From: Candidatus Omnitrophota bacterium
Lineage (GTDB): Bacteria > Omnitrophota > Gorgyraeia > Gygaellales > Profunditerraquicolaceae
Reading direction: 5' to 3'
Length of the DNA: 64,000 nucleotides
Assembly (NCBI GenBank): GCA_028712255.1
Contig: JAQTQJ010000010.1
Coordinates: 8,097 to 72,096 of the forward strand
Shown here piece after piece: positions 37,568 to 64,000 of this stretch (the stretch's first letter is position 1; the number at the start of each line of letters is the position of its first letter). The translations under genes were made by a program, and so were the position numbers. Below the pieces are notes generated by a model, which worked only from the letters and a program-made list of their open reading frames with translations, was not told where the DNA came from and did no database searches.

Positions 37568-37574
37568 AGAGTCA

Positions 37575-38570: not shown

Positions 38571-38578
38571 AAAACGTT

Positions 38579-40160: not shown

Positions 40161-40165
40161 CAAAT

Positions 40166-41637: not shown

Positions 41638-41659
41638 TTGTTAAGGAATTTATTTTATT

Positions 41660-46094: not shown

Positions 46095-46106
46095 GCAAAA
46101 AGTTAA

Positions 46107-47573: not shown

Positions 47574-48520
47574 CAGTTTCTTTTATTTCTCTATTTTTTT
47601 CTTTATTGTTGATCGAAATAATTTTGAGGTTAACTTATCCGTTATACTCAAATTATGCGATGGAGATGTGGAGGTATGGAATAAATTTAAAAAAGCAAGC
47701 TTCCGATCGCTCTATTACTCATGAACATGCCCCGAATAAAAGTTTTCGCTTTTATGGAGTTGAAATAAAGACAAACTCGCTGGGGTTAAGGAGCGATAGG
47801 GAGTATTTAGCGCCAAAACCGCAAAATTTAAAGCGGATACTGGTCTTAGGAGATTCTATAACTATGGGTTGGGGAGTAAGTTTTAAAGAAACATACCCTT
47901 ATATTCTGGAAACCCTTATAAATAAAGGCTCCAAGTTAAATTTGGAAGTAATCAACTCAGGGGTAGGTAATTACAATTCAGTTTCAGAGTTATCAGCTTT
48001 AAAAAGGCTTAGCGTCTTAGAACCTGACATGATAATATTGGGTTTCTATATAAATGATCTTGAAGATATCCGGCCTTCTTCGGGTATAAGTTATTTTCTA
48101 AGCAGACATTCCTATCTTTATGCATTTATTTGGAGTAAATTAATCAATATAAAATACTATTATCCCAACAATGATTATCGGGCCTATTATTCAAAGCTAT
48201 ATCAAGACCCAAATTTAAGGCTTAAAGCAAAAGATGCGATTAACCGGATGATCGAGATTGCCGATAAGCGCCGGATACCTTTTGTATTTATCAATATACC
48301 GGAAATGCACAGCTTTAAAGAAGGTTCTTTTGAAGCCGCGCGGAATTTTACGAAAGAGATAAAAAGAGAACACCCGGAAATTATTTTCGTCGACCTGGCA
48401 GAAACTTTAAAAGGAAAGAATGCGCGGGATTTCTGGGTTTCTTCCGAAGATCCGCATCCGAATGCCAGCCTGCACAGGATTATCGCCGAGTCGATTTATA
48501 GCTCAATTGGTGGCAAATGA
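47549..48520 (+). CDS. membrane-anchored SGNH/GDSL-family hydrolase (paralog of 37575-38570)
   Basis: N-terminal TM. Block I is VLGDSITMGWG. Confidence 0.65.
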   Translation: MGKTKDKLTVSFISLFFSLLLIEIILRLTYPLYSNYAMEMWRYGINLKKQASDRSITHEHAPNKSFRFYGVEIKTNSLGLRSDREYLAPKPQNLKRILVLGDSITMGWGVSFKETYPYILETLINKGSKLNLEVINSGVGNYNSVSELSALKRLSVLEPDMIILGFYINDLEDIRPSSGISYFLSRHSYLYAFIWSKLINIKYYYPNNDYRAYYSKLYQDPNLRLKAKDAINRMIEIADKRRIPFVFINIPEMHSFKEGSFEAARNFTKEIKREHPEIIFVDLAETLKGKNARDFWVSSEDPHPNASLHRIIAESIYSSIGGK

Positions 48521-48672
48521 AAAAAGATCTGCTGTTTAAAATATTAACTTTTTTAAAAGTAAACCTGGTCTGGTGGCTGAGTCCTGTTGCGCTTATAATA
48601 GTTTTATTCGGATTATTGGTTTTTTTAGGCCGGAGTTCTCAATCGGTCCCCTTTGCCTATACTCCGTATTAA
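48517..48672 (+). CDS. 51-aa single-TM small protein, translationally coupled (ATGA) to the SGNH hydrolase
   Basis: The ATG at 48517 overlaps the TGA at 48518-48520. It encodes MKKDLLFKILTFLKVNLVWWLSPVALIIVLFGLLVFLGRSSQSVPFAYTPY*. It is not in the ORF track because it is under 60 aa. Confidence 0.3.
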   Translation: MKKDLLFKILTFLKVNLVWWLSPVALIIVLFGLLVFLGRSSQSVPFAYTPY

Positions 48673-48682
48673 CCATAAACAT

Positions 48683-49726
48683 ATGATCAAAATAGTTTCT
48701 CCCATAACAAATATCAGCGAAGTCGATCCTTTGATTAACGCCGGCGCCAGTGAATTTTATTGCGGGGTAATGACTGAGCAGGAAAATAAATCACTGACCA
48801 ATATATATTGCCTTAACCGGCGTCCTTCTTTATTCTCAAATTTGTCCAGCTTCAAGGAATTGGAGGCTTTGGTTAAAAAAGCAAAAATACGTAAGGTAAA
48901 AGTTAATTTTACCCTTAATGAATTTTACACCGCAGATCAGTTTGAAAACGTCAAGGATCAGGTAAAAAAAGCCATCGATTGCGGGATAGATGCTTTTATT
49001 GCGGCAGATTTAGGGTTAATCAAAGAGCTGCAGAAATATAAGGATAGGGTAAAGACGCATATTGGCGTGGGCGCAACTACCTTTAATGCCTATACCGCCG
49101 GTTTTTATAAAGGTATGGGGGCTGAAAGGATAATTCTGCCCAGGCAACTGACTCTGGATGAGATCGGCGATATTTGTTCAAAAGAGAAAGGCCTTGAATT
49201 CGAGTGTTTGATTTTAAATGAGAGATGCCATTTTATCGATGGTTACTGTAATTTCTTGCATAGCGCATTTTCTTATCAAAACCCTTTGCTTAATCTTTTT
49301 AAATATGACCGTTTTAGGAATAAAATTTGGCAATTCTTACCGGCTGCAATTTCAAAAATGATCCACGTCCACGGCATGAAGAAAGAGGTAGCCTGCTGTT
49401 TTAATTATAAAGCAGAAACCAACTCAAGCCCTGCTTTATCGAAGAATAGGTCGAGCCTGGGCAATTTCTTTAATGCCGAAACTTTTTTAAATGCCTGCGG
49501 CGCATGTTCTCTTCAAGCATTAGACAAAGCGCAAATAAGCTTTGTAAAAATAGTCGGAAGGACATCTTTTAAGAACAAGGTAAAGGACGTCGAATTTATT
49601 GCTCGCTGCCTTAAACTTTTAAAAGAAGAAATTGGCGCAGGTTTTTGTAATGCCGTAGAGGATATTTATCGCCAAACCTATAAAAACCATTGCCGTAAAT
49701 CTTATTGTTATTATCCGAAAGAATAG
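48683..49726 (+). CDS. peptidase U32-like family protein
   Basis: The N-terminus MIKIVSPITNISEVDPLINAGASEFYCG resembles the U32 N-terminal box (ELLSPAG…A…GADAVYxG). Multiple conserved Cys. The likely start is the ATG at 48683. Confidence 0.45.
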   Translation: MIKIVSPITNISEVDPLINAGASEFYCGVMTEQENKSLTNIYCLNRRPSLFSNLSSFKELEALVKKAKIRKVKVNFTLNEFYTADQFENVKDQVKKAIDCGIDAFIAADLGLIKELQKYKDRVKTHIGVGATTFNAYTAGFYKGMGAERIILPRQLTLDEIGDICSKEKGLEFECLILNERCHFIDGYCNFLHSAFSYQNPLLNLFKYDRFRNKIWQFLPAAISKMIHVHGMKKEVACCFNYKAETNSSPALSKNRSSLGNFFNAETFLNACGACSLQALDKAQISFVKIVGRTSFKNKVKDVEFIARCLKLLKEEIGAGFCNAVEDIYRQTYKNHCRKSYCYYPKE

Positions 49727-49731: not shown

Positions 49732-50541
49732 ATGGAATTCTGCATTTTCATAACCCGTTTGGATCAGTTGAATTCTTGGAATAAGAATTATAAAAGAATT
49801 TACTTTGGCAGTGAGTTTTGTAGCCATCTTATCCCGGAAAAAGAAGATTTGAATAGATTGCTTGATTTTGTCCAAATGAGAAACCTCTCCTTTTGTTTAG
49901 TCTCAGGTTATGCAACTAATCAGGAGATTAAGAAATATGAAGTCCTTTTAGATATTTTAATGAAACGTAAAGTAAGCGCCGAATTAATAATCAATGATTG
50001 GGGAGTGCTTGAGTTATCCCGTAATTTTGCCGTTATTCCCGTTTTGGGGCGTTTATTGATCAGGCAAAAGAAAGATCCGCAAATATTAAAAATTTTTAAT
50101 AAATTGCCGCCGATCACCAAAAAGCGCTATCAGGCAATAGCGCTTAATGAAAAATTTTCCGAACTTTTAAAAGAAAAAGGAATTAAGAGAATAGAAATTG
50201 ATAATCTGTTTCAGGGGGTTACTTTGGGCGATCTGGGGCGCGATTTCTCCTTTTCTTTATACACACCCTACGCCTATCTGACTACCACCCGGTTGTGCCC
50301 GTCTAATGCCAGTAATAACCGGCCGGCTAAAGCGCTTGAAATACCTTTTGCCTGCACGAAGGAGTGCCTGGACAGGCATATTATTATAAGGCATGTAAAT
50401 ATGCCTTATCCTCTGATTTTAAAAGGAAATACCATTTTTTATAGACAGAATAGTATCGGCCAAGCCTGTAAAGATAAAAGGATAGATAGGTTTATTTTCC
50501 AGCTTCCATTCGCCGAAAAAGTAAAGGGACAATGTTTTTAA
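49732..50541 (+). CDS. second U32-like / hypothetical protein (partner of the preceding gene)
   Basis: Similar N-terminal box (…KRIYFGSEFC…). Adjacent to the U32-like gene, as in two-gene U32 pairs. Weak. Confidence 0.35.
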   Translation: MEFCIFITRLDQLNSWNKNYKRIYFGSEFCSHLIPEKEDLNRLLDFVQMRNLSFCLVSGYATNQEIKKYEVLLDILMKRKVSAELIINDWGVLELSRNFAVIPVLGRLLIRQKKDPQILKIFNKLPPITKKRYQAIALNEKFSELLKEKGIKRIEIDNLFQGVTLGDLGRDFSFSLYTPYAYLTTTRLCPSNASNNRPAKALEIPFACTKECLDRHIIIRHVNMPYPLILKGNTIFYRQNSIGQACKDKRIDRFIFQLPFAEKVKGQCF

Positions 50542-51665
50542 TTATACTGATACTTATATTTATCCGACCCTTCATTTCTTCGTCGGCATTTGTTTATTTA
50601 AACTTTGTTTATTCCGCTTTGCTTTTGTTATTCTTGATTATGTATATCTATTCCAAAAAAATAGCTTTTTTCCCGGAGAAGAACTTCAACCATCCAGTTA
50701 CCTTTTTTATAGCGGCTTTAATCATTTCCCTGGTTTATTCTTTAGACCAAATATATAGTTTATTGGAAATTTATAAATATATCGGCGGTTTACTTTTATT
50801 CCTGGTGGTTTATTCTTTTCCAGAAGAAAAACAACGTTTGTTGCTGCGGGCAATAGCTGTTTGCGGATTATTAATTAGTTTTCTGGCTTTATATCAATAT
50901 TTTTTCGGATTTAAGCATCTTCGGGATTATTTTTCGACTAACAAAATACAATCTTCTTTTATCTCGGATTATATCAGGAATAAACGGGTTTTTGCGCCAT
51001 TTATAACTCCCGGTATCTTGGGCGGGTATTTAGCCATGATCCTGCCGCTGTGCCTGATTAATAAAAAAAGGTTTTGGTTTATTTTTCCCATATCTTTGGC
51101 CCTGTTTTTTACTAAATCCCTTTCAGCCATGCTTAGCCTGTTTTTCGGCCTGGCGATATATTTTTACCTACGAGGCAGATCGAAAAAGAAGGCTGTTTTT
51201 TACCTTATCCTTACTTTTCTATTTACGATTGTTGTTTTTGTTTTACGCAACGATTCAATAAGGGAGCATACCTTGCCTTTATTTTCTGTGGTAATGAGAT
51301 TAAATTACTGGAAGGATGCTTTTGGCATTATCGCAGTTCATCCCATTGTAGGTATTGGGCCGGGAAATTTTAGTTTAAATATGAGTAGATTCGCCCATAA
51401 CTCTTATATCCAGATTTGGGCTGAGTTAGGTATATTCGGATTATTTTCTTATATCTGGCTGGTATTTGAGGTTTTAAAAGCCGGATTTAAAAGCCTAAAA
51501 GGATCGGAGGATAAAAATAAAAGCAGCTGCCTTTTAGCGGCAGCGGCAGTATTTTTAATCCATAATTTTCTTGATTTTACTTTTTTTCTGCCAGAAACGG
51601 TCTTTATCTGGTGGGTAATCTTAGGGTTGATCGCCTCTTTGCCCAAGAAAGAGCAAATAGCGTAA
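50532..51665 (+). CDS. O-antigen ligase-like (Wzy_C domain) polytopic membrane protein
   Basis: About 10 TM with a periplasmic loop carrying …HNSYIQIWAELGIFGL… (Wzy_C/WaaL-type signature). Confidence 0.65.
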   Translation: MFLIILILIFIRPFISSSAFVYLNFVYSALLLLFLIMYIYSKKIAFFPEKNFNHPVTFFIAALIISLVYSLDQIYSLLEIYKYIGGLLLFLVVYSFPEEKQRLLLRAIAVCGLLISFLALYQYFFGFKHLRDYFSTNKIQSSFISDYIRNKRVFAPFITPGILGGYLAMILPLCLINKKRFWFIFPISLALFFTKSLSAMLSLFFGLAIYFYLRGRSKKKAVFYLILTFLFTIVVFVLRNDSIREHTLPLFSVVMRLNYWKDAFGIIAVHPIVGIGPGNFSLNMSRFAHNSYIQIWAELGIFGLFSYIWLVFEVLKAGFKSLKGSEDKNKSSCLLAAAAVFLIHNFLDFTFFLPETVFIWWVILGLIASLPKKEQIA

Positions 51666-51722: not shown

Positions 51723-52886
51723 ATGAATCATAAAATAAACCTTCTTTATATTATTACCAAGCTGGAATTGGGGGGAGCCCAAAGGCAGCTGTTAAGTTTG
51801 ATTGCCGGCCTTGACAAGGAAAAATACAGAGTTTTTTTGTTTTCCGCCAAAGAAGGTTTATTGGCCAAAGAAGCAGAGTTAATTCCCGGATTAACACTAA
51901 AGAAATCCAGATTCCTCGAACGGCCGGTTAATTTCATTAAAGATATCCTGGTTTTTATCGAAATCTGCGCCTTTATTAAAAAAAATAAGATTGAGCTGGT
52001 TCATACTCATAGTTCTAAAGCGGGGATTTTGGGTAGGTTTGCTGCCAGGGCCTGTAAAGTAACGGCGATTATCCATACAGTCCACGGTTGGAGTTTCAAC
52101 GATTATCAGCCGAGAATACTGCGTAATTTTTATCTTTTTTTTGAAAAACTATGCGCAAAATTCACCGGTAAAATAATCGTAGTTTCATATTCGGATAGGG
52201 AAAAAGGATTGAACAGTTCTATTGGCAGCCAAGGGCAATATGTTTTGATCAGGTACGGAATAAATGCAAGTGAATTTGCGGCAAGTGATTTACGTAATCA
52301 GGCCAGGCAGGCTTTGGGAATAAATAAAGATGAGCTTGCGGTAGGAATGGTTGCCTGTTTTAAACCCCAGAAATCGCCGTTAGATTTTGTAAAAATCGCC
52401 TTGGCCGTAAAAAAAGAAATTTGCGGCATAAAATTTATTATGGTCGGAGACGGACAGCTGCGCAATAAGGTCTCCTTGTTGATTAAGGAACTTGGTTTGC
52501 AGGATAAGATAATTTTAACCGGTTGGCGGCCAGACATAGCCTTTATCTTATCAGCTTTAGATATTTTTATTTTGACTTCATTGTGGGAAGGGTTACCAAT
52601 AGCAGTCCTTGAGGCCATGGCAGCAGGTAAACCGATAATTGCTACTGATACAGGGGGGATTAGTGAAGTCATCGAAAACGGAAAAAACGGTTATTTAGTC
52701 AAGCCTCAAGACAACCAGGCTATGCAAAACCGGATTACAGAATTATTAAGAAGCAGGCAAAAAAGGGAAGAATTTATAAGCTTGGGCAGGGCGAGGATTG
52801 ATTCGGAAGAATTTTTATTAACTAAAATGGTCAGAGCTACCGGGGAATTATATTTAAATCTTTGGGAGGAAGCCCGAAATGCTTAA
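51723..52886 (+). CDS. glycosyltransferase family 4 (GT-B, retaining)
   Basis: C-terminal …EGLPIAVLEAMAAGKPIIATDTGG… E-x7-E motif region. Confidence 0.85.
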   Translation: MNHKINLLYIITKLELGGAQRQLLSLIAGLDKEKYRVFLFSAKEGLLAKEAELIPGLTLKKSRFLERPVNFIKDILVFIEICAFIKKNKIELVHTHSSKAGILGRFAARACKVTAIIHTVHGWSFNDYQPRILRNFYLFFEKLCAKFTGKIIVVSYSDREKGLNSSIGSQGQYVLIRYGINASEFAASDLRNQARQALGINKDELAVGMVACFKPQKSPLDFVKIALAVKKEICGIKFIMVGDGQLRNKVSLLIKELGLQDKIILTGWRPDIAFILSALDIFILTSLWEGLPIAVLEAMAAGKPIIATDTGGISEVIENGKNGYLVKPQDNQAMQNRITELLRSRQKREEFISLGRARIDSEEFLLTKMVRATGELYLNLWEEARNA

Positions 52887-53862
52887 TTTTATCGTTGTTT
52901 TTTTATCAGCATTAACATTCACCATAGTATTCACGTTTTTTCTGTCGAAGATTTCTTTAAAATTCAATCTGCTTAAAACCGGCCAAATTCCTTTGGTTGG
53001 CGGTTTAGCTGCTGGGTTAGCTTTTATTATATCTCTGGCTTTGAGCATTATTATGTTTAATCTGGCTGCGGGTAAGGTTTTGGTTATAGCCGGGGCAAGC
53101 TTACTTATGCTTTTACTGGGTGTAATCGATGATTTAAAAGAACTTTCAGTAATCCAGAAATTATTAGGGCAAGCATTTTGCGCAATTTTATTGATGGCCT
53201 CCGGTATAAGGACCGAGATTATATATTTTGGTTTCTGGTTGAATTCGCTAATTACCTTTATCTGGATTTTGGGAATAACCAATGCCTTTAATCTTCTTGA
53301 CATCATGGACGGCCTGGCCGGCGGAGTGACTTTTATTGTAGCCAGCGCCTTTTTGCTGATCGGCTATTTTAATGCGGATTTAAACGTCCAGATTTTAAGC
53401 CTTATTTTATGCGTTTCCAGCGCCGGGTTTTTATTTTTTAATCTTTCTCCGGCAAAGGTATATTTAGGTAATTCCGGGAGCCATTTTTTCGGTTTCCTTG
53501 TGGCATCACTTGCTTTAATTACCCAATATGCATCCTCAAGCAATGCTTTTGCTTTAGCCACCCCGGTAATGATAGTAGGTTTGCCAGTCATAGATACGGT
53601 GTTACTTGTACTTTTCCGGCTGATTAAAAAAAGGCCGCCTTTTAAAAAAAGCAATGACCATATAGCTTTAAAAATAGGCTCTTTGGGGGTTTCACCCCTT
53701 AAGACTATCCTGATTATGTATTTACTGGGAGCTATTTTTGCTGCCTGCGGAGTTGGATTATCTAGAGTAAACAATATCTTCGGAGCCGTTATCATTATTT
53801 GTGTTTTCTTGCTTAGTATAGGAATCTTTTTGAAATTTGTGAAGATCGAAACGAATGTCTGA
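52879..53862 (+). CDS. WecA/MraY-family polyprenyl-phosphate N-acetylhexosamine-1-phosphate transferase (initiating enzyme)
   Basis: …NAFNLLDIMDGLAGG… and polytopic topology. 327 aa. Confidence 0.85.
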   Translation: MLNFIVVFLSALTFTIVFTFFLSKISLKFNLLKTGQIPLVGGLAAGLAFIISLALSIIMFNLAAGKVLVIAGASLLMLLLGVIDDLKELSVIQKLLGQAFCAILLMASGIRTEIIYFGFWLNSLITFIWILGITNAFNLLDIMDGLAGGVTFIVASAFLLIGYFNADLNVQILSLILCVSSAGFLFFNLSPAKVYLGNSGSHFFGFLVASLALITQYASSSNAFALATPVMIVGLPVIDTVLLVLFRLIKKRPPFKKSNDHIALKIGSLGVSPLKTILIMYLLGAIFAACGVGLSRVNNIFGAVIIICVFLLSIGIFLKFVKIETNV

Positions 53863-55168
53863 AAAGATAATTATTTTAGGGGCCGGGCTTTCGGGGTTAA
53901 GCGCCGCCTGGCATTTAAAAGAAAAAGGGCTTAAAGCCAGCGTATATGAAAAGGAAGGTAGCGTAGGAGGGCTTTGCCGTTCGAAAAAAAGCGGTAATTT
54001 TATTTTTGATTATGACGGGCACCTTTTGCATTTTCAAAACAACTATGCTTTTGAACTGGTAAAAAAATTACTCAAAGGTAATCTTGCCCACCACGAAAGA
54101 TGCGCCTGGATAAGCAATTTTGGGATTTTTAGCCGCTACCCTTTCCAGGTAAATCTGCATGCTCTACCGAAAAAAGTGGCGATTGAATGCCTCTGGGGTT
54201 TCTTGCGGGTTTGCAATACAAGGTCTTCCGGAGACAGAAAAAATTTCCTTAAATGGATAAATGCAAACCTGGGGCAGGGAATCGCGAAATATTTCATGAT
54301 TCCCTACAATGAAAAATTCTGGACAGTCCCGTTAAGCCAGATGGTTTGTTCTACTTGGACAGATAAATTTATTCCTCAGGTATATCTTTACGACATAGTC
54401 AGCGGATTTTTCGGGACCAACGGCTCTGGTTTCGGTTATAACGCTTGTTTTTGGTACCCCAAAAAAGGGGGGATAATCCAGTTGCCATTAGCTTTTGAGA
54501 AGCAAGCCGGGCCGATCTTTAAAAACTGCCTTATAACCGGCATTGATCTTAAAAATAAAGAAATAACAATCAAGGGCAGGAGTAAAGAGAAGTTTGACCA
54601 GTTGATTTATACAATTCCTTTGCCGGAATTAGTTAAAATAGCCGGTCCACTGCCCAAGAGAATAATTGAAAACCTTAATCAGCTACGCTGGAATTCGATT
54701 TTTAATCTGAATCTGGCGGTAGAAGGCAGGGTTCATCCCGGTAAGCATTGGGTTTATTTTCCTCAAAAAAATACTGTTTTTTTTAGGGCCGGTTTTTACC
54801 ACAATTTTTCCGCTAGTAATGCGCCGGATAGAAAAAGCTCCCTATATACAGAGGTTTCATATTCCAAAGATAAACCGATCGATAAAAAAACTGTCATAAG
54901 CCGGATTTTAAATGGTCTCCACTCGAAAAATATTATCGGCAGAAAGAATAAAATCCTGACTATGGATCAAAATGATATAAATTACGGATATCCTATTTAT
55001 GACAGTAACTACCTCAGGGTAACGGCGGAAATTAAAGAATTTTTAGCTGCCAAGGATATAATTGCCTGCGGCCGCTACGGTTCCTGGAAATATATGTCAA
55101 TGGAGGATTCCATCTTGGACGGGAAACTGGCTGCTTCCAAGATCCTAAAAAAATGCTCAAAAGATTAA
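53855..55168 (+). CDS. FAD-dependent oxidoreductase, UDP-galactopyranose mutase / amine-oxidase-like
   Basis: N-terminal Rossmann IIILGAGLSGLSAAWHL…E…GGLCRS. …DGHLLHF… recalls the UGM HxFH region. 437 aa. Confidence 0.55.
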   Translation: MSEKIIILGAGLSGLSAAWHLKEKGLKASVYEKEGSVGGLCRSKKSGNFIFDYDGHLLHFQNNYAFELVKKLLKGNLAHHERCAWISNFGIFSRYPFQVNLHALPKKVAIECLWGFLRVCNTRSSGDRKNFLKWINANLGQGIAKYFMIPYNEKFWTVPLSQMVCSTWTDKFIPQVYLYDIVSGFFGTNGSGFGYNACFWYPKKGGIIQLPLAFEKQAGPIFKNCLITGIDLKNKEITIKGRSKEKFDQLIYTIPLPELVKIAGPLPKRIIENLNQLRWNSIFNLNLAVEGRVHPGKHWVYFPQKNTVFFRAGFYHNFSASNAPDRKSSLYTEVSYSKDKPIDKKTVISRILNGLHSKNIIGRKNKILTMDQNDINYGYPIYDSNYLRVTAEIKEFLAAKDIIACGRYGSWKYMSMEDSILDGKLAASKILKKCSKD

Positions 55169-55929
55169 AAAACTTATATTTATACCGGCATACTTTATGG
55201 GATATGTCTTTAAAGCAGGTCAAAGCCAAATATACGGCTTCCTTCTTGGGTATCTTTTGGGCGGTGATTAACCCGCTTTTAATTATGTCGGCCATAAGTT
55301 TTGTTTTTGCAGTGATTTTTAGAATCGAAATAAAAAACTTTTCTTTATTTATACTCGCCGGTATTTATCCCTGGCTGTTTTTTTCTTCCGTTTTATCTGA
55401 GTCGGCAGGGGCGATCCTTAATCAACAGACTATCCTTCACCAATTTAACCTGCCGCGTGAAATCCTCCCTTTAAGCCTTTCTTTAGCGGGCTTTTTTAAT
55501 TTCCTTGGCGGATGGCTGGTAGTTTACCCGGTTTTCTTATTTTTTAACCCTCATATAATTTACCTTTTTCCGTTATTAATACTTATTTTAGCGCTTAATT
55601 TTATATTCCTTTGCGGCCTGAGTTTGGCTTTGTCAGTTCTAAATATATTCTTCCGCGATCTTGAGCATATGCTGGGTACTTTATTAATGTTTTGGTTTTG
55701 GGTTACCCCGGTGTTTTATTCCATCGAAATGGTCCCTGAGAAATTCCGCTGGTTAACTAACCTCAACCCGATGTCTGCTTATATCATTTATTATTGCGAC
55801 GTTTTATACCGGGGTGTTATACCGCAGGAAGTTACTTTTATCAGGGTTTTCCTTTGGGCTTTAGTAAGCATCTTGAGCGGTTTTCTAATTTTTATCAGAC
55901 TGGAAAAAAAGATTTTAAAAAGGATATAA
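55153..55929 (+). CDS. ABC-2 type polysaccharide exporter permease (Wzm/TagG-like)
   Basis: 258 aa, 6 TM, typical ABC-2 family. Immediately upstream of the ATPase. Confidence 0.8.
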   Translation: MLKRLKNLYLYRHTLWDMSLKQVKAKYTASFLGIFWAVINPLLIMSAISFVFAVIFRIEIKNFSLFILAGIYPWLFFSSVLSESAGAILNQQTILHQFNLPREILPLSLSLAGFFNFLGGWLVVYPVFLFFNPHIIYLFPLLILILALNFIFLCGLSLALSVLNIFFRDLEHMLGTLLMFWFWVTPVFYSIEMVPEKFRWLTNLNPMSAYIIYYCDVLYRGVIPQEVTFIRVFLWALVSILSGFLIFIRLEKKILKRI

Positions 55930-55935: not shown

Positions 55936-58659
55936 ATGGACCGGATTGTATTTTGTGACCTTTGGGCAATGTACAGAATTAAATTTATCATTGACTCAAA
56001 GCCTAAATGGGAAAACTTTTGGGCTTTAAAAGGGATTAATTTTAAAGTAGAGCAAGGCGAAGTTGTCGGGATAATCGGTGAAAACGGGGCAGGTAAATCG
56101 ACTATCTTAAAAATAATCGCCGGCATGATATCTTCTGACCGGGGGCAAGTTCAAGTGTCGGGGAGGATCTCGGGCCTTTTGGAGTTAGGGGCTGGTTTTC
56201 AGCCGGAACTGACCGGAAGCGAAAATATTTATTTGATTGCCGGGTTGTTTGGGCTGAGCAGGCTTGAGGTCGAATCAATATATGAAGAGATATTAAGCTT
56301 TGCCGACATAGGAAAATTCATAAATGCCCCGGTTAAATGTTATTCTCAGGGTATGTTTGTAAGGCTGGCTTTTGCCATTGCCATAAATGTAAACTCCGAT
56401 ATTATTCTGATTGACGACACCCTGGCAGTGGGCGATGAGTATTTCCAGAAAAAATGTATTAAGAAGATTTTTGAGCTAAAAGACCAGGGCAAAACCATTA
56501 TTTTTGTTACTCATGATATGGAGGTCGTCCGTCGTTTGTGCCAGCGGGCTATTTTTCTTAAAGACGGCAAGATTGTAAAAGACGGCCCGGTCAACCAGGC
56601 TATTCCTTTATACGCCCAGACTTCCGGGGCAAAAGAAGGAGTGGGTATCTTAAAAAGCGGACATTTAAGCATTATTTTCAATAATGGGCGCCTGTTATTT
56701 AATTGGAAAGACCGCTTGTTGACTCCGGGATTAGGGGGACATACCATTCTGGGCATTATGAATAAACAGTATAATTCTACCCAGGCAGATTGGTTGGTTG
56801 AAAAACAGGATGATCAAAAAATTATTGCCAAGGGCAAATTTAACCAGCTTAACGTCGAGCAAACCTGGCAAATAGAAATAGATAAGGACCTGGGTTTAAA
56901 GTGGGATATCGGGATTAAATCTTCCGATAGGGAGCAGGTTTCAGAATGCCAAGCCAATATTATGCTGGTTAAAGAATATGGCAGCTGGTCTACCGGAATA
57001 GAAAAGGGCGACTTTCCGATTACTGAACAGACAAATAAGGCCTGGCAGCATCTTTTAGGAAATAATATTTTCAGGAAAGTAATCGGGGTAGATATGGCAG
57101 CTGGCCCGGATTTTTCCCTTCCTTCTTTATTTTTTGAAAGATCCTCAAGTATGGAGCCGAATTCCCCGCAGATTCTCAATACGGATTACCTTTTTAACTG
57201 CCGGATGCTTCAATACAAAATTTCCGGTTTGAATAACTTGCTTACCTTCCAGCAAAACTCGGCTGATCTATTTTCAGGTAAGATTATTTTTGATGTTTTT
57301 AACCAAGAAAGCTACTTTGAACAGATTAACCAGGATTTTATTTTGTCTTCTAAAGATACCAGTCTGATCTTTGCAAACGGAGAAGCGATACTTTCATATA
57401 AAGGATTAAGCTTGACTAAAAACAGCCATTTAAATACCTCCATTAATATTGCCGGAAAATGGTATGATTCAGCTTGCGCAAATTGGGAATTTAAGAGGCA
57501 AGCCCAAAATCTAATTGTCGGATTTGGTTCTTGGCCAGGACTGCTTTTAAAACAGGTTTGGGAGTTTGAAATTCATAAAGAAGGGGCTTTTTTATGGAAG
57601 GTATGGCTACAGGTTGAGAAAGAAACCGATATACAGCAGCAGCGTTTACAATTTATGTGCACAGGTAAATACAGGAATTTTTTTACAGAGTACTCAGGCG
57701 GAGAATTTTCGGATAAGTTTTTTGAAACAGAATCGGATATGCTGCAAAGGTGTGTTTCCACAGGAACAATCGGATTAAGCGGCCAAGATGATAAATTACC
57801 GGTTTTAAGTTTATCGTTTTCGCCAAACTCCGGAAATTTTGCCAAAATCCTTAATTCTGATTTTTACCATAAGGCCCGCATATTAAGGATTGAAAAAATC
57901 GATCCGGAAGAAGAAACTATCTTTAAGCCCGGCAGATACAAATCATTTGAAATAGAAGCCCGGTTAGATGCGGCCAAGGAGTTGCAAAAAAATAACCTTC
58001 CGAATGCAATCGAAAAGGGAAGGTTAAAATTTATTTTTGACCGGGGGAAAGGATCGGTTTTCTGGGAGGGCAGGGAACTTACTAAAAAACTGGGTTTTTA
58101 TACCTCTTTACGTTCCTGCGGCCGTTGGCATGATTCCGTGTCTTCGGCTGATTGGAAGATTGAAGGGCAGGATAATAGTTCGATCAGGGTGAAGGGAAAA
58201 TGGCTGCATTTACCGATTTCCCAGGTCTGGAAGCTAAATTTACCCGAAGAGGGGGTAATTGAATTCAATGTTTTTTTAGAAGTAAACGAGAAGATAGTTT
58301 TCGAGCGCTTGCAGGCTAATCTTATGCTTTTGGAGAAATACACTGATTGGGTGGCTAAAGAGAATAAAGGAAAATTTCCGGTTTTTGCCGCAGATATAAC
58401 CGATGATTGGCAACAGGTTTATCGGGCTGATAGTAAATTTATCGGAGTTTTTTCAAAGCCAGAAAAGAAAGTCTTGCCCGAAATATTGTTTGCCCCCCTT
58501 TCTTTAAAAGCCGATTGGTCCTTAAATATTCTAAATTCGGATCTTTACCATCGGGGTAGGGTGCTTCAGTTCTTAAATGCCAACAATACCGTCCTTGAGC
58601 CAGGACAGCATCCTTACGCCCACGGTTTAATCAGCGTTGCTAAAAAAACTGATGTCTAA
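55936..58659 (+). CDS. ABC transporter ATP-binding protein (Wzt-like) with a roughly 650-aa C-terminal extension of three tandem repeats
   Basis: Walker A GENGAGKST, signature YSQGM, Walker B IILIDD. After about aa 235 come three roughly 115-aa repeats sharing IF.NG…L.[WY]K…LT…G.W.DS.A.W……Q.W..E[IL]……Q.N[IL]ML[VL].[EK]Y..W. Confidence 0.85.
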   Translation: MDRIVFCDLWAMYRIKFIIDSKPKWENFWALKGINFKVEQGEVVGIIGENGAGKSTILKIIAGMISSDRGQVQVSGRISGLLELGAGFQPELTGSENIYLIAGLFGLSRLEVESIYEEILSFADIGKFINAPVKCYSQGMFVRLAFAIAINVNSDIILIDDTLAVGDEYFQKKCIKKIFELKDQGKTIIFVTHDMEVVRRLCQRAIFLKDGKIVKDGPVNQAIPLYAQTSGAKEGVGILKSGHLSIIFNNGRLLFNWKDRLLTPGLGGHTILGIMNKQYNSTQADWLVEKQDDQKIIAKGKFNQLNVEQTWQIEIDKDLGLKWDIGIKSSDREQVSECQANIMLVKEYGSWSTGIEKGDFPITEQTNKAWQHLLGNNIFRKVIGVDMAAGPDFSLPSLFFERSSSMEPNSPQILNTDYLFNCRMLQYKISGLNNLLTFQQNSADLFSGKIIFDVFNQESYFEQINQDFILSSKDTSLIFANGEAILSYKGLSLTKNSHLNTSINIAGKWYDSACANWEFKRQAQNLIVGFGSWPGLLLKQVWEFEIHKEGAFLWKVWLQVEKETDIQQQRLQFMCTGKYRNFFTEYSGGEFSDKFFETESDMLQRCVSTGTIGLSGQDDKLPVLSLSFSPNSGNFAKILNSDFYHKARILRIEKIDPEEETIFKPGRYKSFEIEARLDAAKELQKNNLPNAIEKGRLKFIFDRGKGSVFWEGRELTKKLGFYTSLRSCGRWHDSVSSADWKIEGQDNSSIRVKGKWLHLPISQVWKLNLPEEGVIEFNVFLEVNEKIVFERLQANLMLLEKYTDWVAKENKGKFPVFAADITDDWQQVYRADSKFIGVFSKPEKKVLPEILFAPLSLKADWSLNILNSDLYHRGRVLQFLNANNTVLEPGQHPYAHGLISVAKKTDV

Positions 58660-60685
58660 ATTAAAAAGTAAATTTTTATTATTTATTTTTGTTTTATCAA
58701 TCTTGGCAACATTTATCTTTAGGCCAGGCGAAAATAAAGTTGTTAATCTAAACGAAGATGATTGGTTCGTTACTACCGATTCAGGCTGGAAAGGTGCATC
58801 AAATGGGCAAGTTGTCAGTACCGGAAACAACCTTTGGCCGGTTGAACTTAGGTACCGGTTAATAGCCACAAAACTCTGGCCGTGGCCGGAGATCGATTTT
58901 TGGTTAAAATTTAGAAAAGAACATGATTTAAGCAAGTATTCCGGCATAAAATTAGTAATAACCAGCCAGCAAAAAGATGAAATTTACGTTTATTTTATGG
59001 CCGAGGATCAAAATTTAAAACTGCTTAAGCCTCTGGCCCAAAAATGCCGGTTAAATGGCAAGCCGAATCAGGAAATTTTCCTTCTTTTTTCCGATTTTCA
59101 AATACCTAAGGATTGGAGTGCGCGGGTTAGCGGTTTTAACAGCGTTTTTAAATGGGATAAAACCAGACGTTTGGGAATACACAAAAAAGGCAGCGATAAA
59201 GAGGAAGGGAAGCTTTTAATTAAGCAAATCCAACTTTTTAACAATCCGAGTTCAAAAGGAAAAATACTGGAAAGGACAAGGCCGCCAAAGCATTACACTT
59301 TTGATTTGACTCTTAAGCCCGGCAATTATGATAATGAAATTGTTATTTTAGATTCAGACCATGATCCCGTAGGCCCATATTTTTATGGCGCAAACTGGGG
59401 TGTTTGGCTTGATCTACCTGATAAAGACAAAACAGCTTTTTTAGAGTTAAAAGTTATCAGGGCAGGAGGGCCTTTTATGGATAGGTATGATTGGCGCAAA
59501 TCAAAATTTACCTTCCCCGGAAATGACCGCAAATTAAATATGGTTAGCCTGGATGAGTTTATTAAATATTGCCGTAATATCGGGGCTGAACCTTTAATCC
59601 AGGTAAGCGCTTTGGGGGATAATCCGGCTGAAAATGCCGCCGAACTTTTGAGATATCTTAATCAGGAAAAAGGATATGGGGTAAAATTCTTTGAGATAGG
59701 CAATGAGCCTTTTATCTGGCACCAGGTGCATTTTGACCTTTGTGATCATCCTTGTTCACTGGCCGAATATTTCGTAATATTTAAGAAGATATCCTTAGCC
59801 TTACGGAATACACAAGAAAGTATCAACCCGGATTTTAAAATAAGCATTTTTGCCCCCGGGATTGAAACAGCTTGGCTTGACTGGAGTACCCTTTCGGGAA
59901 AAGATGGTAAAAAACCAGTGCTTGGTCAGTTTTTGAAGATGTGCAAAGATTTCGAAAAAGACAGGAAATTAAACCCAAAAGGAATAAGGCTGATCGACGT
60001 TTTAAGTTTTCATCTCTTTCCTTCCTTTAAGGGCGCCCAACCTTTAAAAGGCGAAATTGATGACTCGCTTATTTTAGAGTCGGCCCAAACATGGTATAGG
60101 CCCGATTATCTGAATAAATATGACAGCTCTTTACCTTTGAATAAACCTGGCGGCGTTATCCCCAGGCTTAAAGATATAATAAAAAACAATTATCCCGGTA
60201 TAAAGTTGGCGCTTACCGAATTTAATCTTGAATCTAAATCAATGGTTGACTATGATCCTTTAACCAAGGTCCTCTATTTAGCCGACCTCTACGGGATTCT
60301 GGCAAGATCAGGGGTAGATTATTTTATGCAGTTTTGTTTGAATTCCAGCGACCAAAATACTGCGCTATTGGATGATCTTGATAACATTACGCCGCTTTAC
60401 CATTCCCTGGCTTTATTTGCCAGGAATTTTAACGGTAATATTTTAGAGGTAAAAAACACTCACCCCGAAAAGCTTAGCATCTACGCATGTAATAAAGGCC
60501 AAGATATAGTTATTATGGCAATTAACAAGGAAAACTTTGCAAAAAAAGCGAAGGTTTTATTGAAGGTTAATGATCAATTCAATTTTAGTTTATCTTTTCC
60601 TGCTCTGAGCCTTACCTGCGTAAAAATAGATAAACTGAATCAGAAAGCCGAATGCTGGGAATATGGAAAAGAACAGATTAATTGA
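58652..60685 (+). CDS. secreted or membrane-anchored TIM-barrel glycoside hydrolase-like protein (clan GH-A-like)
   Basis: N-terminal signal/TM. …FEIGNEPFIW… (candidate acid/base NEP) and …LALTEFNLES… (candidate nucleophile TE) in the clan-A order and spacing (about 170 aa apart). The start is probably the ATG at 58652. Confidence 0.45.
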   Translation: MSKLKSKFLLFIFVLSILATFIFRPGENKVVNLNEDDWFVTTDSGWKGASNGQVVSTGNNLWPVELRYRLIATKLWPWPEIDFWLKFRKEHDLSKYSGIKLVITSQQKDEIYVYFMAEDQNLKLLKPLAQKCRLNGKPNQEIFLLFSDFQIPKDWSARVSGFNSVFKWDKTRRLGIHKKGSDKEEGKLLIKQIQLFNNPSSKGKILERTRPPKHYTFDLTLKPGNYDNEIVILDSDHDPVGPYFYGANWGVWLDLPDKDKTAFLELKVIRAGGPFMDRYDWRKSKFTFPGNDRKLNMVSLDEFIKYCRNIGAEPLIQVSALGDNPAENAAELLRYLNQEKGYGVKFFEIGNEPFIWHQVHFDLCDHPCSLAEYFVIFKKISLALRNTQESINPDFKISIFAPGIETAWLDWSTLSGKDGKKPVLGQFLKMCKDFEKDRKLNPKGIRLIDVLSFHLFPSFKGAQPLKGEIDDSLILESAQTWYRPDYLNKYDSSLPLNKPGGVIPRLKDIIKNNYPGIKLALTEFNLESKSMVDYDPLTKVLYLADLYGILARSGVDYFMQFCLNSSDQNTALLDDLDNITPLYHSLALFARNFNGNILEVKNTHPEKLSIYACNKGQDIVIMAINKENFAKKAKVLLKVNDQFNFSLSFPALSLTCVKIDKLNQKAECWEYGKEQIN

Positions 60686-62576
60686 ACTGTCGGTAGTCAT
60701 CCCGACCTACAACAGAAAAAAATTTTTAAAGGAATGTGTCAATTCCCTTCTTAATCAGGATTACCCGGCTGAGAAATATGAAATTATTGTTGTTGACGAC
60801 GGATCTAGCGACGGGACAGATTTAATGATGGCATCTTTCACCGAGAGTCATCCAAATATTGAATATTTGCAAAGGGAGCATCAAGGGCCGGCTGCCGCCA
60901 GGAATGCTGGAATCAAGCATTCAAGCGGTCAAATCATAGCTTTAACGGATAATGATTGCCTACCGGCTAAAAATTGGGTAGGTAGTATTCTAAGGTCCCA
61001 TAAACTGCATAATGAAGCATTGGCAGTAGGAGGGTTAACCGAAGTCAGCCCACGCAATATCAAAGCTTTGGTAAGCCAATCATTGAGCAATGGGGCAATG
61101 TCGGTTGAAATTAAAAATAAAAAAGAACTTATTTTTTTCCCCACCTGCAATGTTTCTTTTAAAAAAGAATACCTTTTTGAGAATTTTAATGAATTATTTC
61201 CTTTGCCCGCAGGAGAGGATTTAGAATTCTTTTGGAGGATTTTTAAAGGGGGGAGTAAATTTGTCTATGATGAAAAAATCGGGGTTTTCCACAATTGCCA
61301 CCCCAATTTCAGATCTTTCCTGAAACAGGCATATATGTATGGAAAAGGCAATTTTCTCGTTCAGCATCTCCATAAGGACCACCCTTTATTAAAGGAAATA
61401 TTACCGCAGAGTTTCTGTGCATTTGTTTTAGGCACAACCGTTAATTTTTTAAAAATTCCGCGCTTTTCTTACCTTTTGGGTTCTAGTCTTATTGCCTCTG
61501 GTTTAAATTTAAACGGATACGAAAAATTTCAGGTTTATTTTTATTTTACTTTGCATAAAATAATGTATTTAGCCGGTAATATCGCGGAATTTACAAGGGT
61601 AGAAAGGTTAAATAAGGAAAATGAAATTATAAAAAAACCAAAGCTGCTTATTTTAGATATAACCCATGAATGCAATCTCAAATGCAGGATTTGCGATATC
61701 TGGAAGACATCGTCATCCGAAATTAACCTCGATTTTCGTTATATTAGAAAACTCCTTTTTGAAGCCAGGGAATTAAAAATAAAAGAAATTGCCCTTTCCG
61801 GAGGGGAACCCTTATTAAGAAACGATATATTTGAGATATTCGACTACGCAAAAAAAATCGGGCTTAAAAATATTGGGATTTTAACTAATGGCATGCTTGT
61901 TGAACGCCACCTAGAAAAGTTAAAACCATATCTGATCACCGGCTTCGTGTCGCCGGTTATTTCATTCGATTCTTTAAACCCCCAACTGCATAACCATATA
62001 AGGAATAATGGTCTGGCCTGGCAGATGACCAAAAAGGCATTAAATATGCTGGCTTCCTTAAAAAAAGAACATCCCAAGACAAATTTTAACGTAATTACAA
62101 TAATCTTGGGGCAGAATCTGGAAGAGCTACAGGAGCTTGCTGTATTCGTGAAATCATTAAACGCTAATTCATTACAGTTCCAGCCGCTTTTAGCCAATAA
62201 CCTAGATATGGCGGAAAGGAAAAGTTCCCCTTTCTGGGTTCCCAGGGACAGATTATTGGTTCTTGATTCTGTGATTGACGGCTTAATAGGGCTGAAGAGA
62301 AAAGACCCACGATTTATCAAAAATTCGGAAAGGAATTTATCGCTTATAAAAAAGTATTACCGCCAAACCCTGACTTATTTTGATGCTAGCTGTCTTTCAG
62401 CGGATAAAACCGTTTTGGTCGCCAATCAAGGCGATTTCAGGACCTGTTTTTCTGGTTACGGAGATATTAAAAGCCAGGGGTTAAAACAGGTATTACAGGG
62501 TAAAAAAATAATCCAGGTTCGCCAAAAGGCAAGAAAATGTTCATCTCCCTGCCTTTTGCCCTGCTTTTTTGATTAA
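60663..62576 (+). CDS. fusion protein: N-terminal GT2 (GT-A) glycosyltransferase + C-terminal radical SAM domain with a Cys-rich SPASM/twitch-like tail
   Basis: GT2 block: LSVVIPTYNRKKF…VVDDGSSDGT…TDNDC. Radical SAM block: LLILDITHECNLKCRICDIW (CX3CX2C) and SGGEPLL. C-terminus: …CFSGYGD…CSSPCLLPCFF. Single uninterrupted 637-aa ORF. Confidence 0.75.
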   Translation: MEKNRLIELSVVIPTYNRKKFLKECVNSLLNQDYPAEKYEIIVVDDGSSDGTDLMMASFTESHPNIEYLQREHQGPAAARNAGIKHSSGQIIALTDNDCLPAKNWVGSILRSHKLHNEALAVGGLTEVSPRNIKALVSQSLSNGAMSVEIKNKKELIFFPTCNVSFKKEYLFENFNELFPLPAGEDLEFFWRIFKGGSKFVYDEKIGVFHNCHPNFRSFLKQAYMYGKGNFLVQHLHKDHPLLKEILPQSFCAFVLGTTVNFLKIPRFSYLLGSSLIASGLNLNGYEKFQVYFYFTLHKIMYLAGNIAEFTRVERLNKENEIIKKPKLLILDITHECNLKCRICDIWKTSSSEINLDFRYIRKLLFEARELKIKEIALSGGEPLLRNDIFEIFDYAKKIGLKNIGILTNGMLVERHLEKLKPYLITGFVSPVISFDSLNPQLHNHIRNNGLAWQMTKKALNMLASLKKEHPKTNFNVITIILGQNLEELQELAVFVKSLNANSLQFQPLLANNLDMAERKSSPFWVPRDRLLVLDSVIDGLIGLKRKDPRFIKNSERNLSLIKKYYRQTLTYFDASCLSADKTVLVANQGDFRTCFSGYGDIKSQGLKQVLQGKKIIQVRQKARKCSSPCLLPCFFD

Positions 62577-63505
62577 TGGCTGAAGTAGTGAAAAGAAGAT
62601 ATATAAAAATGAATTTAAGCAGGCTTAAAAATATTTTCCTGAATATATTAATAGTGCTTTCCATTATTTTTATAGCCAGGAATATATATAAATTCTGGCC
62701 TCTTATCGTCAATGTAAAAATTAAAATAAACCTGCTTTATTTCGCCGCGATTAGTTTTTTAATTATCAGCCAGCATTTTTTCTACGTGTTTGTTTGGAAA
62801 AAACTGCTTAATTACCTAGCTGTAAACTTTTCCTATTCTGAATTGCTGAAGCTTCACTTTTTTACCATAGTTACGAAATATATCCCCGGCCAAATTTGGT
62901 TTCCTTTAGCCAGGGGAAAATATATCATCGATAGAGGAGTAAGTGTGCGGCGGACAAGTTTTATTATTCTGCTCGATTTGTCTTTAGGGCTAGGCGCAGC
63001 TTTGTTATTGATAATCGGATGTTTCTTTATATATAAGTGGAACAACTCTTTAACCGTCTATCCGCCGGCGATTGTTATTGGCCTGGCCTATATATTTAAA
63101 GATAAACGCAAACAATATATTAAAAGCTTAAGCAGCTTTAAAGAAAAAGCAATAATTTTTATGAAAACAATATTTAAATTTTTTCATTATTACCTGGCTT
63201 TAGCTCTTTTTGACGGAATAATCTTTTATCTGTTTTTTAATTTGTTCGTATCGGTTGAATTCCAAAAAATACCGGTTTTTATCGGTTTAAATTCTATACT
63301 CAGGATAATTTTTAGCATTTTGCCTAACCAGCTTGGTATCGGGGAAACAGTACAGTTATTTTTGTTAAAATATTTTTTGGTTGCGCCATATTTTATTTTA
63401 ATCCCTTTATTAATCAGGTGCTGGAAGGTCGCTATCGACTTACTGCTCTTTTCAGTTATCCTGACTTACAAAAAACCGCAATATTTAGCCAAAGAGGTAA
63501 AATGA
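62576..63505 (+). CDS. flippase-like polytopic membrane protein (lysylphosphatidylglycerol-synthase-TM-like / UPF0104 type)
   Basis: 309 aa, about 8 TM with a basic N-terminus. The start overlaps the previous stop (TAATG). Confidence 0.45.
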   Translation: MAEVVKRRYIKMNLSRLKNIFLNILIVLSIIFIARNIYKFWPLIVNVKIKINLLYFAAISFLIISQHFFYVFVWKKLLNYLAVNFSYSELLKLHFFTIVTKYIPGQIWFPLARGKYIIDRGVSVRRTSFIILLDLSLGLGAALLLIIGCFFIYKWNNSLTVYPPAIVIGLAYIFKDKRKQYIKSLSSFKEKAIIFMKTIFKFFHYYLALALFDGIIFYLFFNLFVSVEFQKIPVFIGLNSILRIIFSILPNQLGIGETVQLFLLKYFLVAPYFILIPLLIRCWKVAIDLLLFSVILTYKKPQYLAKEVK

Positions 63506-64000
63506 AAAATAAAATATTCCTAATTGCTGTAATTTTTATTTTTTGCATAGGTATAATCGCCCATATCTTTTTTAAGGATAAATCGGATTTTAGCGAAAAG
63601 AACTATAAGTTGATGAAAAAAATAATTTCGCTGGAAAAAGCAAAATTCCGTAAGTTATCCCTAAAGGTAGAACCTTTCCAGCCGGTTCTGACCGGAGACC
63701 ATTTAAAATTTGTTTTAAGGGATGATTTGGGAAACCAGTGGCTTTTTAAAGAACAGAACGACTTCAATCAGGTAAAGAAAATGCTGGCTGTTTACCAGTT
63801 CACTAAAATTTGCGGAATCAATTTTCCGGAGACACATGAAGTTACCTTAACCATAAACGGTAAAGAAACCAATGGAATAATTACCAGATTTTATTCTGAG
63901 GCGGTTAACCTGGGTGATATTTCCCCTGAAGGGCTGGGTAAAAAATCAATCGAAGAGCTGCAAAGGCTGCATGCCTTAGACTGGCTTTTATTTAATTTTG
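63502..64000 (+). CDS. 5' part of a gene truncated by the window end. N-terminal TM, then a domain ending …LHALDWLLFNF (possibly kinase-like)
   Basis: The ATG overlaps the previous stop (ATGA). Open to the end of the window. Confidence 0.4.
   Translation, partial: MKNKIFLIAVIFIFCIGIIAHIFFKDKSDFSEKNYKLMKKIISLEKAKFRKLSLKVEPFQPVLTGDHLKFVLRDDLGNQWLFKEQNDFNQVKKMLAVYQFTKICGINFPETHEVTLTINGKETNGIITRFYSEAVNLGDISPEGLGKKSIEELQRLHALDWLLFNF

Follow-up and report, generated by a model that had tools for sequence, protein, structure and literature searches.

The window analysed here is a stretch of 64,000 nucleotides (nt) from a Candidatus Omnitrophota bacterium (assembly GCA_028712255.1, contig JAQTQJ010000010.1, positions 8,097 to 72,096 of the forward strand), and the gene under study is a single open reading frame (ORF) near its end that joins a family 2 glycosyltransferase (GT2) to a radical S-adenosylmethionine (SAM) domain. 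The ORF starts with ATG, holds no internal stops, and encodes 637 amino acid residues (aa) arranged as a GT2 domain, a helical linker, and a radical SAM domain with a twitch-type tail (Table 1). It shares 23 nt at its start with the preceding GH44-like gene, and its stop codon overlaps the ATG start of the gene behind it, which encodes a 309-aa membrane protein, so that the three genes look translationally coupled. A sequence-only reading of the window had described the gene as a GT2–radical SAM fusion, both domains are matched in Pfam, and all five motifs that it quoted are indeed found: IVVDDGSSDGT (aa 42–52), TDND (95–98), CNLKCRIC (337–344), GGEP (380–383), and CSSPCLLPC (626–634). Glycos_transf_2 (PF00535) matches aa 10–133 (E 2e-34, 119.3 bits vs. 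a cut-off of 23.3) and Radical_SAM (PF04055) matches aa 333–495 (E 3e-24, 86.5 bits vs. 29.5), both far beyond chance, and Fer4_12 is an additional Pfam match in the protein. Two minus-strand ORFs inside the gene (61844–62320 and 62467–62712) were dismissed as shadow ORFs, given the strong conservation of the sense-strand protein.

It is extremely improbable that a missed stop or a frameshift has fused two separate genes into this ORF. In two related loci, L054 (5215–7111) and L056 (10019–11924), the GT2 and radical SAM halves do lie in different frames as ORFs that overlap at the linker, while the split genes hold the same position after Wzm–Wzt; these splits may be either genuine or 1-nt assembly errors. 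Against an artefact, an identical 637-aa protein has been deposited independently at NCBI (P0001, [quoted passage not shown]), and the search for the same fusion in other genomes has yielded an uninterrupted ORF of at least 600 aa in 53 non-redundant loci from independent assemblies, gathered by a genome scan and by fetching loci by exact protein. Moreover, in an alignment of 32 homologues, on which all invariant residues named below are based, the junction at about 61.5–61.6 kb is spanned by invariant H298, K299, Y302, G305, N306, and E309, followed by I330, D332, and H335, and since invariant residues continue through the linker, selection acts on the reading frame at the junction as well. 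The architecture is already present in databases, since automated pipelines label the protein, which is listed at JGI as [quoted passage not shown].

The N-terminal half had been taken for a complete GT-A/GT2 module with a DxD-like TDND, and profile, motifs, and predicted fold agree on this. PF00535 is matched by all 32 aligned homologues, in which D46, D96-N-D98, and E185-D186 are invariant; the DxD motif (D96/D98) is encoded at 60948–60956 and the ED pair (E185/D186) at 61215–61220, and the GED motif of the fusion aligns with the GED of the chondroitin polymerase K4CP. The GT-A core (aa 10–130) is modelled by AlphaFold2 (AF2) with a predicted local distance difference test (pLDDT) score of about 90–96, and Foldseek retrieves RmlT, PcManGT, K4CP, TarP/TarS, and WrtF for this half (E 1e-14 to RmlT, PcManGT, K4CP, and TarP); the half, as modelled, has a GT-A fold. 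Its best NCBIfam match, EpsD, reaches 142 bits against a cut-off of 370. K4CP, TarP/TarS, RmlT, GalT1, PglI, and WrtF, the best matches of the N-terminal half, have the GT-A fold, the DxD, and the (G)ED motif in common with it, but these polymer-glycan and teichoic acid enzymes bear no radical SAM domain, while the fusion adds three cysteines and a conserved helical region of its own. The cysteines C25 (60735–60737), C99 (60957–60959), and C162 (61146–61148) are invariant, C99 stands immediately after the DxD motif, and K4CP has no Cys at its two aligned positions (C99 and C162). An additional metal or redox site is one possible role for the three, and a contact surface with the radical SAM domain is another.

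The region between the two catalytic domains (aa 216–325) is helical and well conserved. It comprises two short amphipathic hydrophobic helices at aa 251–278 and a 37-residue helix at aa 285–321; by hydropathy, nothing in aa 216–325 attains the transmembrane score, and thus a true transmembrane helix is absent. The amphipathic helices of the model may help the protein to associate with the membrane surface. A variable linker (about aa 312–325), the very site at which the genes in L054 and L056 are split, connects the long helix to the first strand of the radical SAM barrel.

For the C-terminal half, the assignment of a radical SAM core from its CX3CX2C and GGEP motifs has held up in the domain-architecture search, where PF04055 scores above its cut-off, and in the model. 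The cluster-motif residues C337, C341, and C344 (61671–61694) and the stretch S379-G380-G381-E382 (GGEP at 61800–61811) are invariant. Modelled alone, the domain reaches a pLDDT of 88 and a predicted template modelling score (pTM) of 0.88 and shows a barrel followed by a β-hairpin, helices, and a Cys tail; the modelled half has the partial (β/α)6 TIM-barrel fold. Structure prediction had also been proposed as a way to see whether the two domains pack against each other: the GT-A core and the radical SAM domain are each predicted confidently, but the full-length AF2 model has a pTM of 0.56, at which the mutual placement of the GT2 and radical SAM domains is not confident.

The cysteines at the extreme C-terminus had been called SPASM- or twitch-like, and the second of these names suits them better than the first. 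There are five auxiliary Cys, all invariant, arranged as C577-X12-G590-X4-C595 and, further on, C626-X3-C630-X3-C634. The first group fits the SPASM/twitch signature CX9-15GX4C, whereas the canonical seven-Cys SPASM signature (CX9-15GX4C...CX2CX5CX3C...C) does not fit, there being five Cys and CX3CX3C instead of CX2CX5CX3C. The SPASM Pfam family (PF13186) is matched by 21 of the 32 fusion-family members (best E 3e-6), the window protein itself having no match at E <= 0.01. The model shows the twitch elements, namely strands at aa 583–586, 591–593, and 598–601, helices within aa 607–624, and then the Cys tail. Because CX9-15GX4C is present, the second Cys group is non-canonical, and a hairpin, helix, and Cys tail are predicted, this half is most likely of the twitch type (abridged SPASM) rather than a canonical two-cluster SPASM protein, with a single auxiliary cluster predicted. 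Compared with the SPASM/twitch enzymes anSME, SuiB, SkfB, PqqE, BtrN, and MoaA, the fusion thus differs in its auxiliary cysteines; it also lacks a RiPP recognition element (RRE), and its context is that of a glycan, not of a peptide, cofactor, or aminoglycoside pathway.

The radical SAM enzyme closest to this half is BlsE, the cytosylglucuronate decarboxylase of blasticidin S biosynthesis (7VOB), which three independent methods ranked first, among them a search of PDB sequences with the family profile (3.7e-13) and Foldseek against PDB (E 2e-13, TM-score 0.71/0.70). Yet the identity is 16–17%, BlsE, which belongs to a nucleoside-antibiotic pathway, stands alone with no glycosyltransferase fused to it, and its Cys pattern is CxCxxC, as against CX12GX4C plus CX3CX3C in the fusion. 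The substrate of BlsE is a nucleobase-linked sugar, and the Cys triad at the extreme C-terminus of the enzyme has been proposed as the site of a second cluster (PMC3715490). The BlsE family model TIGR04466 (cut-off 400 bits) is not among the best 25 NCBIfam matches of the window protein, while a radical SAM paralogue downstream of the fusion in locus L003 scores 63 bits on it. No NCBIfam model comes near its cut-off for the fusion, the top radical SAM match being a tungsten-cofactor maturase (79 bits vs. 380). Taken singly, the halves are ordinary members of very large superfamilies; no curated family covers the fusion. When the radical SAM half alone was searched exhaustively, 77 representatives were obtained at E < 1e-30, of which the nearest are mostly fused proteins of 600–640 aa; at about 30% identity, the remoter relatives comprise tandem radical SAM fusions as well as unfused enzymes some 350 aa long.

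The fusion is conserved across Omnitrophota. At least 120 homologue clusters are full-length, the best 120 matches having 96–100% coverage, 50–82% identity, and both PF00535 and PF04055, and a scan of species-representative genomes gave 61 closely related loci. In the 53 non-redundant loci, the ORF is mostly 603–655 aa long, with one of 963 and one of 1170 aa. Nearly all loci are labelled Candidatus Omnitrophota or Omnitrophica, including Candidatus Undivivens industriae; further source labels are automatically named “uncultured Planctomycetales/Planctomycetia” bins. The outliers, with labels as deposited, are L016 (Paceibacterota) and L051, L052, and L062 (Nanoarchaeota/Woesearchaeota, these three at 42–43% identity). 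Full-length fusions at 42–52% identity thus occur in bins assigned to DPANN archaea or bacteria of the candidate phyla radiation, and these bins could be mis-binned contigs of small-genome Omnitrophota or could reflect lateral transfer among ultra-small organisms.

The architecture also has natural variants. The bin L066, whose label is Methanosarcinales, encodes the GT2 and the radical SAM orthologue (42% and 45% identity) in two genes of their own (2556–3551 and 7389–8555), which lie about 4 kb apart within a cluster of about 10 radical SAM genes; since these separate genes and the splits in L054 and L056 delimit it, the domain boundary can be placed at about aa 312–325, and the three loci act as natural “Rosetta stone” controls. 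Across loci, the identities of the GT2 and radical SAM halves correlate weakly (r = 0.22), the identity range being too narrow to be informative. Larger fusions include GT2–radical SAM–radical SAM proteins of 963–976 aa (P0027, P0039, and P0043), a second GT2–radical SAM protein of 880 aa in L005, a B12–radical SAM–GT2–radical SAM protein of 1161 aa (P0124), and proteins of 1179–1493 aa in which another GT2 subtype is joined to two radical SAM domains (P0135, P0143, and P0150); double and triple radical SAM fusions are also present among the relatives. Since GT2 and SPASM/twitch radical SAM domains have been fused independently, both activities should belong to one pathway and probably act on one intermediate.

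The genomic neighbourhood was compared by calling ORFs and searching them with BLASTP against the window proteins, in 35 loci with at least 8 kb upstream and, for the immediate neighbours, in all 53. The order conserved in other genomes is GT4, WecA-like, UDP-galactopyranose mutase (UGM)-like, Wzm, Wzt, sometimes GH44-like, and then the fusion. The gene directly upstream of the fusion encodes Wzt in 29 of the 53 loci, the GH44-like protein in nine, and Wzm in four. The set expected of a Wzm/Wzt-dependent lipid-linked glycan pathway (PF01061, PF00005, PF00953, and a GT4 gene) lies upstream in the window and is kept in 24–32 of the 35 loci; this supports the proposal of the sequence-only reading that the fusion probably acts on the glycan of the exporter. 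The same reading had placed the gene between Wzm/Wzt and a flippase-like protein. The exporter genes are indeed upstream, but the GH44-like gene directly adjoins the fusion, and the flippase label is without support: the 309-aa protein has no Pfam match at E <= 0.1, no NCBIfam match at E <= 0.01, and no counterpart beside the fusion in other loci.

Several of these neighbours deserve a comment. The WecA-like protein scores 114 bits on TIGR02380, under the cut-off, and the NCBIfam match of the GH44-like protein (EpsB-like) is far under its own. The FAD protein annotated as an amine oxidase is far closer to UGM of the eukaryotic type (Trypanosoma/Aspergillus, E 6e-45) than to the classical Glf of bacteria (E 1e-5), and this resemblance implies a furanose sugar in the glycan. 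The Wzt-type ATPase, whose total length of about 900–912 aa is kept in most related loci, has a C-terminal portion of about 650–667 aa with no Pfam match and no significant PDB sequence match. An “ILNxDxY/F...R.L” motif seen in it by eye three times suggests internal repeats, and the extension may be a new module for recognition of the glycan terminus.

The radical SAM domain might modify only the non-reducing terminal residue of the completed polymer, with the resulting cap being read by the Wzt extension to license export; E. coli O9a and Klebsiella O12 would be the analogues, their caps being methyl, phosphate, or Kdo (3-deoxy-D-manno-octulosonic acid). The conserved extra region of about 650 aa in Wzt and the frequent position of the fusion directly after it are consistent with this idea, and ABC-dependent O-antigen pathways typically employ multidomain polymerase/terminator proteins; however, neither the known Wzt carbohydrate-binding modules nor any PDB entry is detectably similar to the extension, and the present data do not separate terminal from internal modification, so that the role of a chain terminator seems improbable.

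Downstream, a radical SAM gene directly follows the fusion in 45 of the 53 loci, and 35 loci with at least 8 kb on this side carry 3–9 (median 6) radical SAM-type genes, some for B12-binding enzymes and others paralogous to the fused domain, to which they are about 27% identical. In L003, the NCBIfam matches of this array are generic SPASM/twitch and B12 ones, far under their cut-offs. The window locus is atypical in that the 309-aa membrane protein follows the fusion, the radical SAM tailoring genes lie upstream, and no twitch-type paralogue of the fused domain is found within the window. That the 309-aa protein gene and the partial ORF behind it stand in place of the downstream array suggests a rearrangement or a cassette swap.

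Upstream of the core operon, the window holds a block unusually rich in radical SAM genes and suggestive of periplasmic glycosylation, which also includes three ORFs of 261–490 aa without a significant Pfam match. Peptidase-U32-family genes are found both in the window and in L005 (708–1724 and 3820–4905); their best NCBIfam matches are the O2-independent hydroxylases UbiU and TrhP, far under cut-off, and these proteins may hydroxylate the same product anaerobically. Two ORFs of 902 and 721 aa (22925–27798), considered as a second Wzt/GH44 pair, proved to be unrelated: they carry Big_2 Ig-like domains and adjoin a DUF58 protein and a P-type ATPase, which is why the glycan locus is taken to begin at about 31 kb.

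Table 1. Features of the fusion gene and of its locus (window coordinates; fractions give the number of related loci, out of 35, that hold the gene)
Feature	Position	Strand	Remarks
Upstream tailoring block	31132–47573	+	Four B12 radical SAM, three PMT_2 GT-C, small GT2, GDSL/SGNH
B12-binding radical SAM genes	31132–32691, 32697–34157, 41660–43081, 46107–47573	+	
Second GDSL/SGNH gene	47549–48520		
Peptidase-U32-family gene	48653–49726		
Wzy_C (O-antigen ligase-like) membrane protein	50532–51665	+	
GT4-family glycosyltransferase	51723–52886	+	24/35
WecA/MraY-family polyprenyl-phosphate sugar-phosphate transferase (initiating)	52879–53862	+	PF00953, E 5e-33; 25/35
FAD protein, UGM-like	53855–55168	+	PDB 4dsg, E 6e-45, full length; 27/35
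Wzm ABC-2 permease	55153–55929	+	PF01061; 32/35
Wzt-type ABC ATPase	55936–58659	+	907 aa, long C-terminal extension; PF00005; 31/35
GH44-like protein	58637–60685	+	682 aa, hydrophobic N-terminus; PF12891, E 7e-9; upstream in 10/35
Fusion ORF	60663–62576	+	637 aa, GT2–helical linker–radical SAM/twitch
GT-A fold GT2 domain	60684–61307	+	aa 8–215; PF00535, invariant columns, Foldseek
Helical region and inter-domain linker	61308–61637	+	aa 216–325; AF2 secondary structure, hydropathy, split junctions
Radical SAM core	61638–62192	+	aa 326–510; CX3CX2C and GGEP
Twitch/abridged-SPASM auxiliary-cluster region	62391–62564	+	aa 577–634; invariant Cys, SPASM Pfam in relatives, model
Hydrophobic membrane protein	62576–63505	+	309 aa; no recognised family; not a conserved neighbour
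Partial ORF	63502–64000		At least 166 aa, N-terminal hydrophobic segment; no Pfam match

There are other pathways in which a GT2 and a radical SAM enzyme cooperate. In mycofactocin biosynthesis, the GT2 enzyme MftF and the SPASM-type radical SAM enzyme MftC act in one pathway, as the two halves of the fusion would, but they are encoded by separate genes and make a peptide-derived cofactor, and the fusion falls below the cut-offs of both TIGR03965 and TIGR03962. By extension, the radical SAM domain might modify a residue of a ribosomal peptide or protein that the GT2 domain glycosylates, as in MftC/MftF, sactipeptide, or glycocin pathways. MftF is the second NCBIfam match of the GT2 half, many SPASM peptide maturases match the radical SAM half, and SkfB, SuiB, ChlB, anSME, and PqqE are close structural neighbours; these matches are, however, far under the curated cut-offs (MftF 125.7 vs. 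280 bits, MftC 59.9 vs. 265). There is no RRE or N-terminal peptide-recognition domain either, CX3CX2C starting about 12 residues past the linker with no other Pfam domain in between. MftA/MftB-type peptide or chaperone genes are absent from the window neighbourhood, genes in the loci leave little space between them, and the called-gene tables show no small ORF that recurs, small ORFs not having been searched systematically. With glycan genes (WecA-like, GT4, UGM-like, and Wzm/Wzt) as the invariant neighbours, a peptide target is very unlikely.

Hopanoid biosynthesis (HpnI, HpnK, and HpnJ) offers a precedent: the sugar added by the GT2 enzyme HpnI is subsequently rearranged by the B12 radical SAM enzyme HpnJ on a lipid-anchored substrate. 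It differs from the fusion in that the proteins are separate, the radical SAM enzyme is of the B12-binding class, and the acceptor is a hopanoid. A membrane lipid or the polyprenyl carrier could likewise be modified by the radical SAM domain, as lipids are by Tes, GDGT-MAS, HpnH, or HpnJ, with the GT2 domain making a glycolipid head group. The sequence and structure matches include Tes and GDGT-MAS, the B12 radical SAM proteins of the window weakly match the HpnJ and BchE models (HpnJ, 172 bits vs. a cut-off of 578), and homologues of radical SAM lipid enzymes have been reported in Omnitrophota (10.1101/2023.10.20.563219). Nevertheless, the matches of the fusion to lipid enzymes are weaker than that to BlsE and far under the family cut-offs, and the Wzm/Wzt, WecA-like, UGM-like, ligase-like, and GH44-like context fits a polymer glycan and not membrane-lipid synthesis, which makes a lipid target as far-fetched as a peptide one.

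Judged by sequence, both catalytic domains are intact and under selection, and synteny marks the gene as an integral part of a WecA-initiated, Wzm/Wzt-exported, radical-SAM-rich glycan locus. The fusion is therefore best regarded, with good though not full confidence, as a bifunctional enzyme of the Wzm/Wzt-exported glycan pathway, probably cytoplasmic and peripheral to the membrane. Its chemistry is entirely inferred. As to the order of events, sugar transfer first and radical modification of the lipid-linked sugar afterwards is a plausible sequence, to be held tentatively. In such a scheme, built on family knowledge and synteny, the WecA-like enzyme and the GT4 would assemble a polyprenyl-diphosphate-linked primer, and the UGM-like enzyme would supply a furanose nucleotide sugar. 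The GT2 domain, whose catalytic motifs are all present, would transfer a sugar from a nucleotide sugar to the lipid-linked glycan at the cytoplasmic face of the membrane, with the amphipathic helices past the GT-A fold presumably keeping the protein on the membrane surface. The tethered radical SAM domain would then reductively cleave SAM at the CX3CX2C cluster, and the 5′-deoxyadenosyl radical would remove a hydrogen atom from a carbon, either in the sugar just added or in an adjacent one, while one twitch-type auxiliary Fe–S cluster, drawing on the five invariant Cys, might handle the electron. The outcome could lie beyond ordinary sugar enzymes, e.g., epimerisation at an unactivated carbon, BlsE-like oxidation or decarboxylation, or deoxygenation. 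In most genomes, the 3–9 twitch/SPASM and B12 radical SAM enzymes encoded downstream would continue the tailoring before export through Wzm/Wzt; in the window, the equivalent tailoring genes would be the four upstream B12 radical SAM genes.

The principal competing proposal reverses this order: the radical SAM domain would act on a soluble nucleotide sugar, and the product, an unusual or unstable activated sugar, would be passed directly to the fused GT2. It draws on the similarity to BlsE, DesII, viperin, and MoaA, which act on nucleoside- or nucleotide-linked substrates. On the other hand, the identity to BlsE is low and its family model is not in the best NCBIfam matches, no residue-level evidence for a nucleotide-binding site has been obtained, and the long arrays of radical SAM paralogues, as well as the fusions of several radical SAM domains with GT2, resemble successive tailoring of one tethered scaffold more than they do a set of distinct nucleotide-sugar pathways. 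Modification of the donor is accordingly considered rather unlikely, though it deserves to be kept in mind, and transfer followed by modification of the lipid-linked sugar is the scheme retained here.

The finding is larger than the sequence-only reading had suggested, the fusion ORF being the conserved core of a phylum-wide, radical-SAM-rich envelope-glycan locus. It is possible, if doubtful for the present, that the fusion is the core enzyme of a phylum-wide pathway that rewrites a lipid-linked, ABC-exported polysaccharide residue by residue through radical chemistry. Candidate reactions could include C–H activation leading to epimerisation, C-methylation by B12 radical SAM enzymes, deoxygenation, decarboxylation, and C–C cross-links. 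If true, proteusin-type peptide tailoring would have its counterpart among carbohydrates, and Omnitrophota would carry surface glycans built from sugars beyond the reach of classical nucleotide-sugar enzymology. To our knowledge, the carbohydrate-acting radical SAM enzymes known so far all use small soluble metabolites (aminoglycosides, nucleoside antibiotics, and TDP-sugars). In line with the earlier remark that no GT2–radical SAM fusion had been characterised, neither such a fusion nor radical SAM tailoring of Wzm/Wzt glycans, or of any polymeric lipid-linked envelope glycan, was found described in the full-text literature searched, most subscription journals lying outside its coverage. Up to nine radical SAM enzymes belong to the surrounding polymer-glycan pathway, whose novelty could exceed that of the fusion.

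For further work, the fusion is a compact and defined starting point: at 637 aa, it keeps an identity of at least 50% throughout the phylum and is located beside recognisable initiation and export machinery, and the functional units are marked out by variants that are naturally split, unfused, or triple-fused. Solving its reaction would test the coupling of glycosyl transfer with C–H activation on one polypeptide and would probably reveal new sugar chemistry. Omnitrophota are abundant, largely uncultured, and very small anaerobes; the reaction of the fusion would inform on their cell surface, and the locus points to surface sugars remodelled by a radical chemistry that is so far unstudied in the literature searched.

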